Assembly: GCA_947304135.1 (NCBI GenBank)
Contig: CAMYZZ010000001.1
Span: 24,872 to 88,871 of the forward strand
From: an uncultured Candidatus Saccharibacteria bacterium
GTDB taxonomy: Bacteria; Patescibacteriota; Saccharimonadia; Saccharimonadales; Saccharimonadaceae
Direction: 5' to 3'
DNA length: 64,000 nt
Position numbers and translations under genes: made by a program. A model generated the notes under the pieces. That model was not told where the DNA came from, ran no database searches, and was given only the letters and a program-made list of their open reading frames with translations. This document shows, piece by piece, positions 10,246-11,799 of the stretch (position 1 is its first letter; each line of letters opens with the position of its first letter).

Positions 10246-10305
10246 GGCACTAATCCCTTTTTTATGCTAGTATTATTATATCATATTCGAATTGCAAGGA
10301 GGAGA

Positions 10306-11025
10306 ATGAACGAAAAAGGAAAAAATATCGGGTGGATTGTAGCAGTCGTAGTTCTGATCGTTGGGTTTTTGGGCGTTGTGATTTGGAGAATGGCTGACAA
10401 AAAAGCAAATCAAGTTGACTATAGTAAATATGATGTTAACTCTATAATTGCCGGGAACGAAGACAACGGCGGGATTGGTGACCATGTCAAAGGATCTGCT
10501 GACGCGCCGGTGGTGATATATGAATATGCGGACTATCAATGTTCTGGGTGTGCCTCGGCGAATCCACGCGTAAACAAGTTGCTTACGGAATACGACGGCA
10601 AGCTAGCGGTGGTGTACCGAAATTTCTTATTAAGCTATCACCAGAATGGAACGGCGGCAGCTAGCGCGGCGGAAGCGGCGGGGCTCCAGGGCTATTTTAA
10701 AGAATACGCGGACAAGCTATTTGCCAACCAATCTGTCTGGTCTAGCGCAACTGGCAATTCTCGCACGGACATGTTTGTAGATTTGTTTAGAAACGTGACT
10801 GGTGGCGAGGGTGACGAAGAAAAGTTTATTGCCGATATGGGCAGCGCCGAGGTGAAGGCTAAAATCGACTTTGATACGGGACTATCAGAAGATCTTGATA
10901 TTCCTGGGACACCTTCATTCTTCTTAAACGGGGAGAGGATTGACCTAACTAATGTCTCCACTGAAGACGAATTTATGAAGCTGATGCGCGAGAAGATTGA
11001 CGCTGCGCTGAAAGTGGCAAAATAG
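10306..11025 (+). CDS. Membrane-anchored DsbA/BdbD-family thioredoxin-fold protein
   Basis: DHVKG, EYADYQCSGC (CxxC), VYRNF, GTPSFFLNG; SD AGGAGG before ATG 10306. Confidence 0.9.
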   Translation: MNEKGKNIGWIVAVVVLIVGFLGVVIWRMADKKANQVDYSKYDVNSIIAGNEDNGGIGDHVKGSADAPVVIYEYADYQCSGCASANPRVNKLLTEYDGKLAVVYRNFLLSYHQNGTAAASAAEAAGLQGYFKEYADKLFANQSVWSSATGNSRTDMFVDLFRNVTGGEGDEEKFIADMGSAEVKAKIDFDTGLSEDLDIPGTPSFFLNGERIDLTNVSTEDEFMKLMREKIDAALKVAK

Positions 11026-11031
11026 TATTTG

Positions 11032-11060
11032 AAAAAAGCGGCCGTGGTGGCCGCTTTTTT
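11032..11060 (+). terminator. Intrinsic terminator of the DsbA-family gene
   Basis: AAAAAAGCGGCC-GTGGT-GGCCGCTTTTTT. Confidence 0.85.
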
Positions 11061-11090: not shown

Positions 11091-11356
11091 AAAAGCCTCC
11101 GGCTATCCTGCCAGAGGCTTTTGCGCTTTTTACCAGCGAAACTTATATGGTGCTGTCACGTTCGAGCAGTAAGGGACTGCTGAGTAAAATCGCAACTTAC
11201 ACCCCCTAAACAATTTTCGTTTCGATGAACTCAAGGCCGAGGCCTAAAGGTTCGTGCGACTTTTTACGTGCATAAGCACGCTTAAGTCCGATACGCATGT
11301 ACTGACGTACTCCTGTTTAGTTTTATCGGCTTACGACGTCTTGGAAAAAGCCGACC
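11091..11356 (-). ncRNA. Candidate ~265-nt structured RNA of unknown class (contains a possible 30-aa ORF)
   Basis: Own TTGCTT-17-TACAAT promoter, terminator AAAAGCCTC..GGAGGCTTTT at 11091-11122, several hairpins, no long ORF. Confidence 0.5.
11206..11298 (-). CDS. Possible 30-aa small protein (MRIGLKRAYARKKSHEPLGLGLEFIETKIV)
   Basis: AGGAG 11 nt upstream of ATG inside the candidate RNA; no recognisable family. Confidence 0.3.
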   Translation of the reverse strand: MRIGLKRAYARKKSHEPLGLGLEFIETKIV

Positions 11357-11361
11357 TATTT

Positions 11362-11390
11362 ATTGTATCAAAAAATGGCCAAAAAAGCAA
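11362..11390 (-). promoter_or_regulatory. Sigma70-type promoter TTGCTT-N17-TACAAT with extended TG
   Basis: Read directly; 17-nt spacer ending in TGA. Confidence 0.7.
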
Positions 11391-11457: not shown

Positions 11458-11799
11458 CTAATCATTTTTATAAAGCGTGGTGGTGATGTCGTAGAGTTTT
11501 TGGATATGATTTTCAAGAAAGTAATAATGTTTAATATAGAAGGCGGTGATAATAAAGAGCAAAGCCGCAATAATGGAAGCAAAAATTGTAAATGGGCCGC
11601 CAACAAAAATGATACCATGGAGAGCAATTGTCATCATGACGAGGGTCAAAGCGACGAAAAATAGCATGACTATAAGATGTACAGCGCGCTCGTGTTGGAA
11701 ATTTCTGACCATTTCGGAGTGATAAATTTTGAGCTCGGAAGTTGGGTGCTTGGCGGCTTCTTTGATGAATTTTTCGTAGTTTTTGATGCGGTTTTCCAT
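11458..11799 (-). CDS. Uncharacterised two-TM membrane protein
   Basis: FQHERAVHLIV..YIKHYYFLEN.IQKLY pattern; ATG 6 nt after TGCTATAAT (ORF-track N-terminus is spurious). Confidence 0.8.
   Translation of the reverse strand: MENRIKNYEKFIKEAAKHPTSELKIYHSEMVRNFQHERAVHLIVMLFFVALTLVMMTIALHGIIFVGGPFTIFASIIAALLFIITAFYIKHYYFLENHIQKLYDITTTLYKND

Follow-up and report, generated by a model that had tools for sequence, protein, structure and literature searches.

The 5′ ends of several Gram-positive messenger RNAs (mRNAs) carry stem-loops that stabilise them, as in the aprE leader, ermC and the cryIIIA STAB-SD element. Bacteria also produce small proteins of fewer than 50 amino acids (aa) from stand-alone small open reading frames (sORFs), of which the microproteins of Escherichia coli and Salmonella have been reviewed (PMC10730256, PMC10117436), and dual-function small RNAs (sRNAs) such as SgrS/SgrT, RNAIII/hld and SR1/SR1P, for which an overview is available (PMC12310071). 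Here we analyse a short element on the minus strand, positions 11390–11091, of a 64,000-nucleotide (nt) stretch of DNA from an uncultured Candidatus Saccharibacteria bacterium (contig CAMYZZ010000001.1); this whole stretch is called the window. Comparative sequence analysis leads us to read the element, with a probability of about 0.88, as a transcription unit of its own that encodes a small protein. The protein belongs to a previously undescribed family that is encoded on a conserved, structured mRNA. An initial annotation, made from the letters of the window, had offered three readings: a novel sRNA, a highly divergent housekeeping RNA or a structured small-protein mRNA. The third is favoured by an intact open reading frame (ORF), its codon pattern and the existence of leaderless variants, and the divergent housekeeping RNA and the purely non-coding sRNA fall away.

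We compared the locus across Candidatus Nanosyncoccus, the genus to which the window's genome belongs and a group of gut and rumen Saccharibacteria. A blastn search of 60 relatives recovered the region in five genomes, the matching stretch stopping at the stop codon of the ORF. A peptide profile built from 16 sequences was far more sensitive, giving exactly one match in 95 of the 101 Nanosyncoccus genomes. All 106 distinct loci (106/106) contain an intact, ATG-initiated ORF of 26–35 codons, and together they encode 93 different peptides; the two remaining sense frames are open in just 59 and 20 of the 106. Over 12 conserved codons, the entropy at codon positions 1, 2 and 3 is 6.2, 4.4 and 14.2 bits, a concentration of variation at third positions, and the conserved Ile is written as ATC, ATT or ATA, all of them synonymous. 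The ORF is preceded by a Shine–Dalgarno (SD)-like sequence in 97 loci, the other nine being leaderless, and is followed by a terminator-like hairpin with a T-run in 92 of 106. Judged from these genomes, the ORF behaves as a small-protein gene would: the start codon and SD are kept, changes in length are in frame and substitutions fall at third positions. Among related genomes, which the initial annotation had proposed to search for homologues, both the structure and the ORF are conserved.

The leaderless loci come from about ten species (L091, L093, L104, L111, L115, L119–L121, L124 and L131, that is, nine of the 106 loci plus L131). They carry a TAAAAT or TAGAAT box 7 bases before the ATG (TAAAAT-N7-ATG) and have no SD and neither of the helices P1 and P2 described below. 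Their ORFs show no excess of structure over synonymous recodings, yet they encode PAEWQ(E/K)FIEI. Because these loci keep the peptide without RNA structure, we regard the peptide as the core of the element and the RNA structure as an addition. Some of the leaderless loci have no terminator, and their ORF abuts the 3′ end of a convergent dsbA gene.

Among 1.84 billion proteins, 54 representative clusters match the peptide, all of 26–87 aa and most of them matching at or near the C-terminal end. The longer database proteins that we inspected are mostly miscalls to an upstream start, and a few run past the stop codon. None of the matching proteins in the public collection carries a name. A 209-aa protein clustered with the peptide (P0059, P0060) does not seem to be a genuine fusion; its sequence suggests that the ORF was read on past the stop, probably with a different genetic code.

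The first profile, built for Nanosyncoccus, gave no match outside the genus. Downstream of the DsbA orthologue, however, nine of ten genomes from eight sister genera have an ORF of 30 codons, convergent and of the type MPIAIEFVPSRRKKIAVDVVPAEWRIFIAH. With a combined profile, 57 of 401 genomes and 39 of the 255 sampled genera of the order Saccharimonadales then proved to carry the family, and a phylum-wide sample of 401 genomes yielded no match beyond that order. On this sampling, the protein family is restricted to Saccharimonadales. The widespread 30-residue form reads MPIxI(R/K)(K/F)VPSRxK(R/K)I(A/E)V(D/E)VVPAEWQxYIAH, with entropies of 14.1, 12.6 and 39.2 bits at the three codon positions. 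Because this form is the more widespread, we infer that the Nanosyncoccus peptide is the derived one.

The Nanosyncoccus consensus begins with MRIK, continues with a basic stretch and ends in (I/F)(A/P)PAxWQEFIEI. Its N-terminal half is rich in Lys and Arg (net charge +4 to +9) and variable, most of the conservation falling in the last ~12 codons. In the five-genome clade to which the window belongs, PPAPWQ is replaced by PLGLGL, with loss of the otherwise nearly invariant Trp and Gln. The peptide as a whole is hydrophilic, with a net charge of +2 to +7 and no hydrophobic stretch, and for this reason we rejected a type I toxin. Sequence searches of Pfam, NCBIfam and the PDB with both forms of the peptide gave no match, and the literature searched on Nanosyncoccus, on small proteins and RNAs of Saccharibacteria and on the peptide motif held nothing relevant. 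The pattern ..V.IP.E....L had raised the idea of a SpoVT/AbrB/MazE swapped-hairpin fold; this was discarded, as Pfam and PDB profile searches were negative and AlphaFold gave only a short helix at residues 23–28 (predicted local distance difference test, pLDDT, 62), over EWQLYI (EWQxYI in the family).

RNA structure was assessed in alignments of the window's clade (A3 and A4), in a genus-wide alignment fitted to covariance model R1, and with a leader model of the sister genera, R2. In the clade, 92.2% of the cells of helices P1–P3 are paired, compared with 81.7% after shuffling (RNAalifold and pair counting), and double-change cells number 47 versus 16; none of 500 shuffles reached the paired or the double-change value, and slid controls gave at most 0.10. 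All six pairs of P2 covary, and all six scored pairs of P1 show double changes (80 loci). P3, which lies over the relatives' PPAPWQE codons, replaces their CUCCUGCC-CCAU-GGCAAGAG by compensatory changes. A covariance model of leader plus ORF is matched over its full length in 80 of 97 Nanosyncoccus loci. In the genus-wide alignment fitted to R1, 88.9% versus 75.8% of cells are paired, with 199 versus 65 double-change cells and 0/500 shuffles as good; this model-fitted alignment contains compensatory changes in every pair of P1 and P2.

A fourth helix, P4, forms between the Phe-Ile-Glu-Thr codons and the 3′ untranslated region (UTR), 98.1% of cells being paired in the window's clade. The third base of the Ile codon, C, U or A, covaries here with G, A or U of the 3′ UTR (CG 9, UA 7, AU 1). 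RNAalifold offered an alternative long-range helix between GUAUCG near the start and CGAAAC at the end of the ORF, which shows no covariation; P4 is preferred because the ATA variant breaks the alternative helix and keeps the P4 pair. By this comparative evidence, the mRNA is also under selection, with P1–P4 as four covarying helices. Three helices of the initial annotation, TCGGCTT/AAGCCGA (P1), CGTGC/GCACG (P2) and AGGC/GCCT (the top of P3), covary in relatives. Its other two, GCAGT/ACTGC and AAGTCGCA/TGCGATTT, lack comparative support because both involve a 63-nt insert common to no aligned relative: at this site (11205–11143) the relatives have either nothing inserted or unrelated inserts.

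The coding sequence itself bears marks of the structure. ORFs fold better than their synonymous recodings (mean z = −1.56; 79% below −1), and codon use in the peptide differs from that of the genome (CCT 71% versus 15%, GCC 69% versus 33%, CAA 85% versus 48%, GAG 83% versus 42%), the conserved Pro, Ala, Gln and Glu codons deviating in the direction that P3 requires. The residues that flank the P2 loop are complementary-codon pairs in 42 of 63 cases, including Ser-Glu (14), Asp-Ser (8), Glu-Ser (7) and Ala-Ala (6).

Upstream of the ORF, the leader has conserved unpaired nucleotides. Of 96 leadered Nanosyncoccus loci, 88 have GGTCG 20–70 nt before the ATG, where shuffles predict 4.2, and the motif is invariant in all 16 sister-genus leaders. 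In the latter an equivalent helix lies near the predicted transcript start, its loop carrying CCAAAA on one side and the invariant AAAGGUCG on the other. This helix has a covariation score of 0.47 versus 0.26, reached by 0/500 shuffles; the score comes from the covariance-model alignment, a naive best-helix permutation test having picked spurious helices. R2 found no leaders in other families of the order, and no locus outside the peptide family matched it. The leader-loop motif has three matches elsewhere in the window's genome, which is chance level, and all three seem from their surroundings to be parts of coding regions. In the window the family leader is present in reduced form, with a 15-nt loop.

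The features of the window's transcription unit are collected in Table 1. Direct reading of the minus strand bears out the promoter proposed by the initial annotation (TTGCTT, a 17-nt spacer, an extended TG and TACAAT), and the size that it gave for the transcript, ~265 nt, agrees with the predicted transcript. Its AGGAG and 30-codon ORF (11298–11206, minus strand) are both present, as is its terminator, at 11120–11091 (minus strand) by direct reading and RNAfold. The whole region folds at −92.5 kcal/mol in RNAfold, compared with −73.9 kcal/mol for shuffles (z = −3.7; 0/200 shuffles as good).

Table 1. Coordinates of the small-protein transcription unit and its convergent neighbour, given as positions in the window.
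Feature	Position	Strand	Basis or remark
−35 box, TTGCTT	11385..11390	−	Sequence reading; 17 nt upstream of the −10 box
Extended −10 box, TG-A-TACAAT	11362..11370	−	Sequence reading
P1 5′ strand (GUCGGCUU), beginning at the predicted transcript start (~11355/11356)	11348..11355	−	Reading, RNAfold, covariation
P1 loop, UUUCCAA...GUCGU	11333..11347	−	Reduced form of the family leader motif (CCAA... GGUCG)
P1 3′ strand (AAGCCGAU)	11325..11332	−	Covariation
SD, AGGAG	11310..11314	−	Sequence reading
Small hairpin between SD and AUG, GUAC-GUCA-GUAC	11299..11310	−	Read by eye
30-codon ORF, ATG 11298 to TAG 11206, MRIGLKRAYARKKSHEPLGLGLEFIETKIV	11206..11298	−	ORF list, relatives' profile, codon-position entropy
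P2, hairpin in the ORF, GCGUGC-UUAU-GCACGU, codons 6–11	11266..11281	−	Covariation
P3, hairpin in the ORF, CUUUAGGC-CUCG-GCCUUGAG	11230..11249	−	Covariation
P4 5′ strand (UCAUCGAAAC), codons Phe-Ile-Glu-Thr	11219..11228	−	Pair counting in the clade
63-nt insert from the stop codon to the P4 3′ strand, with GCAGU/ACUGC hairpin	11143..11205	−	Alignment of relatives
P4 3′ strand (GUUUCGCUGG), then GGUAAAAAGCGCAAAAG	11133..11142	−	Pair counting in the clade
Conserved single-stranded 3′ UTR motif, GGUAAAA(A/C/U)GCGCAAAAG	11119..11134	−	Clade alignment
Intrinsic terminator, arms 11120–11110 and 11103–11093, T-run to 11091	11091..11120	−	Reading and RNAfold (13-bp stem)
DsbA-like thioredoxin-fold gene, convergent	10264..11025	+	Pfam Thioredoxin_4/DSBA; tail-to-tail neighbour

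A consensus promoter scan missed the window's promoter because its −35 box matches the consensus at only three of six positions. The −35 region of relatives is TTGCAT or TTGAC, often with GCTTATG ahead of it, and every one of the 21 loci in the window's clade has a TAnnnT hexamer beginning 12–13 nt before the first base of P1, with a gap of 6–7 nt. In related loci such as L003, L004, L006, L020 and L164, GCTTATG stands immediately upstream of the −35 box (GCTTATGCTTGCA or GCTTATGATTGACG); this promoter motif is conserved across genera and families and is absent from the window's own promoter. The 4-bp hairpin between SD and AUG has GUUC/GAAC and GAAC/GUUC variants in relatives and would shorten an unusually long spacer, and in other clades a hairpin GAUAC-AUGC-GUAUC places the AUG within a tetraloop. 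On the other side of the promoter, an upstream ORF of 112 aa (11458–11796, minus strand) has no Pfam family above threshold. No clear terminator is visible by sequence reading between it and the promoter of the small gene, so read-through is possible.

The 3′ UTR motif bears on the alternative that survives best, a dual-function RNA that would provide both the peptide and a regulatory RNA acting by base pairing or protein sequestration, with GGUAAAAYGCGCAAAG before the terminator as its seed. The motif and terminator fit a layout common among sRNAs, in which a terminator hairpin comes after a conserved stretch of single strand. The structure is also selected beyond what coding needs, and unpaired motifs are conserved in the non-coding parts: 88 of 96 leaders have GGUCG, and 18 of 21 loci in the window's clade have the 3′ motif. 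In the window's genome the 3′ motif occurs only here. Set against this, the motif is missing from several members of the clade and from most other clades, and leaderless variants lack any structure. A genome-wide scan for 10-mers complementary to the 3′ motif found chance-level matches only, none of them near start codons, and no target in trans is known. We consider such a second function unlikely.

The gene neighbourhood is recurrent. A DsbA-like gene lies convergently downstream in 25 of 27 order-level loci; within Nanosyncoccus, 73 of 106 loci have a DsbA-like match in the 1 kb downstream, which is convergent in 66. The flank opposite to dsbA varies between loci. In 13 of 26 loci outside Nanosyncoccus, a Mg2+ channel gene lies upstream on the same strand, CorA in 11 and MgtE in two. 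Of the CorA genes, nine are adjacent, with their alignments ending 170–250 nt short of the ATG; in the other two cases a further gene intervenes. Neither CorA nor MgtE was detectable in the window's genome by tblastn, a CorA hidden Markov model (HMM) built from relatives or phmmer with MgtE (best E = 0.08). A link of the peptide to Mg2+ channels (CorA, MgtE) or to DsbA is suggested by gene order only, that is, by guilt by association. In many loci the small gene and dsbA have one bidirectional terminator in common, with a conserved loop ..AGGUGCC.. in L003, L004, L020, L028, L036 and L046 that is unusual for a terminator loop.

This arrangement admits a second alternative, in which the element would regulate dsbA through convergent transcription: read-through or overlapping 3′ ends would modulate dsbA in antisense and so keep the tail-to-tail pair together. 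This idea fits the retention of the pair (25 of 27 loci across the order, 66 of 106 in Nanosyncoccus) beside a variable other flank, and also the common bidirectional terminators of many loci and those leaderless loci that abut the dsbA 3′ end without a terminator. In the window, however, each gene has its own strong terminator, that of the DsbA-like gene lying at ~11031–11060. Moreover, whole Nanosyncoccus clades show no DsbA-like match downstream (for many only ~385 nt were covered), a very short intergenic region can by itself preserve a gene pair, and antisense regulation leaves the conserved peptide unexplained. We regard it as improbable.

Conservation concentrated in the last ~12 codons, behind a variable N terminus, could also point to a regulatory leader or arrest peptide, with PPAPWQEFIEI-stop acting in the ribosome tunnel and a ribosome at the stop codon controlling the folding of P4 and the terminator. 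The motif is rich in Pro and Trp, and the end of the ORF pairs with the 3′ UTR beside the terminator. What such a peptide would control is hard to find: right behind the terminator no co-oriented gene is seen, its place being taken by convergent dsbA or a separately promoted gene. The element is not a leader or arrest peptide of the usual TnaC, SecM or MgtL type, since there is no gene behind it in cis. Many clades also lack P4 and the 3′ motif, and that of the window has lost PPAPW, which makes arrest a very improbable explanation.

The initial annotation had found no landmarks of tRNA, tmRNA, RNase P RNA or signal recognition particle (SRP) RNA, and Rfam and ARAGORN likewise match nothing in the region. 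The Rfam scan that it had proposed gave nothing at the gathering threshold and only sub-threshold noise at E values up to 10; at E = 10 the SRP, 6S, RNase P and tmRNA models still had no match in the region, and Rfam matched none of 20 plus 19 related loci. A divergent housekeeping RNA is not supported: RNase P RNA and tmRNA are located elsewhere in the window's genome (contig C7), no locus beyond the family matched R2, and most genera of the order lack the peptide. A reading of the locus as a purely non-coding RNA, whether a new sRNA or a divergent SRP or 6S RNA with a fortuitous ORF, would suit the strongly covarying structure and the failure of Rfam models to detect SRP and 6S RNA in the window's genome, but is scarcely credible beside an ORF intact in 106/106 loci with a third-position pattern, a peptide kept by unstructured leaderless variants, a gap in RF00169 matches that is order-wide, and the lack of housekeeping matches just described.

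Models for SRP RNA (RF00169, RF01854) and 6S RNA have no match in the window's genome, which is 96.7% complete, and RF00169 went undetected in 41 of 41 Saccharimonadales genomes (the 40 others from 17 genera), single-contig ones included. Either the SRP RNA has diverged beyond the reach of the model or it is lost at the first-look filter. Because the RF00169 gap is order-wide, it is unrelated to the small-gene element.

We therefore return to a small protein with its own transcription unit, and infer that it is a partner-binding microprotein expressed from a stabilised or regulated mRNA. The 5′-terminal stem and the terminator may shield this very short mRNA from end-dependent ribonucleases (RNases), and together with the hairpins around the start codon they may set the rate of translation. 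A trans-acting factor may bind the leader, as the conservation of its unpaired GGUCG and CCAA nucleotides suggests, possibly in autoregulation or sensing. The peptide, disordered alone, most likely docks its conserved C-terminal segment onto a larger partner, and the basic N terminus in Nanosyncoccus probably contacts nucleic acid or an acidic surface.

Several observations weigh against a small-protein gene of this kind. Having lost Trp and Gln, the peptide of the window's clade may have another mode of action or be in decay. Neither alignment led AlphaFold to a confident fold (pLDDT 62–68). At P2, base pairing seems to choose the amino acids, so that protein-level selection would not act on this part of the peptide. 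The SD-to-AUG spacing is long, 11–14 nt in most loci, although the small spacer hairpin may shorten it. As for the channel genes, the CorA arrangement may have been inherited once, which would leave the MgtE case as the only independent event.

A bolder extension, which we rate as a long shot, is that the family-wide leader would be a new cis-regulatory RNA (a riboswitch or protein-binding operator) controlling a Saccharimonadales-specific microprotein that works with Mg2+ channels, its N-terminal half having been remodelled in the window's genome, where neither channel is detectable. The recurrent neighbourhood with Mg2+ channel genes and DsbA offers testable leads for function rather than findings. 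Saccharibacteria genomes are tiny (~0.7–1 Mb), so a single-copy gene kept across many genera is likely to matter; the gene, which matches no curated protein or RNA family, is a candidate core factor for a largely uncharacterised lineage. It is also a natural example of overlapping constraints, in which covariation of a hairpin within the ORF decides pairs of amino acids (Ser-Glu, Asp-Ser, Ala-Ala) and synonymous Ile codons covary with a base of the 3′ UTR.

Compared with described systems, the window gene resembles stand-alone sORF microproteins in having its own promoter, SD and terminator, and the family does so in its length of 26–35 aa, its synonymous variation and its being missed by annotation; like them, the peptide probably acts by binding a larger partner. 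Unlike described microproteins, the family has no sequence relationship in Pfam, NCBIfam or the PDB and occurs only in Saccharimonadales. The Saccharimonadales peptide is hydrophilic, unlike MgtS, MgtR and MgrB, the enterobacterial peptides linked to Mg2+, which are membrane peptides. With dual-function sRNAs the element has in common a short (~265 nt), highly structured transcript with a small ORF and conserved non-coding motifs; it differs from them in a peptide whose conservation reaches further than that of the RNA structure, and in leaderless variants that have no structure.

The leader recalls two further classes. As in stabiliser stem-loops, P1 begins within 1–2 bases of the predicted +1, the gap between the −10 box and P1 fitting in 21 of 21 loci of the clade; many relatives carry an SD-like GAGGUGGG within the leader, as in STAB-SD, and a very short mRNA would gain from protection against 5′-end-dependent decay. 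Unlike pure stabilisers, the family loop has conserved CCAA... and GGUCG nucleotides, which are not needed for stabilising. Although the family leader, unlike known cis-regulatory leaders, has no Rfam match and in the window is reduced to its 15-nt loop, it is built like the structured leaders of riboswitches and ribosomal-protein genes, with a covarying closing helix and conserved unpaired nucleotides just upstream of the SD, across genera.

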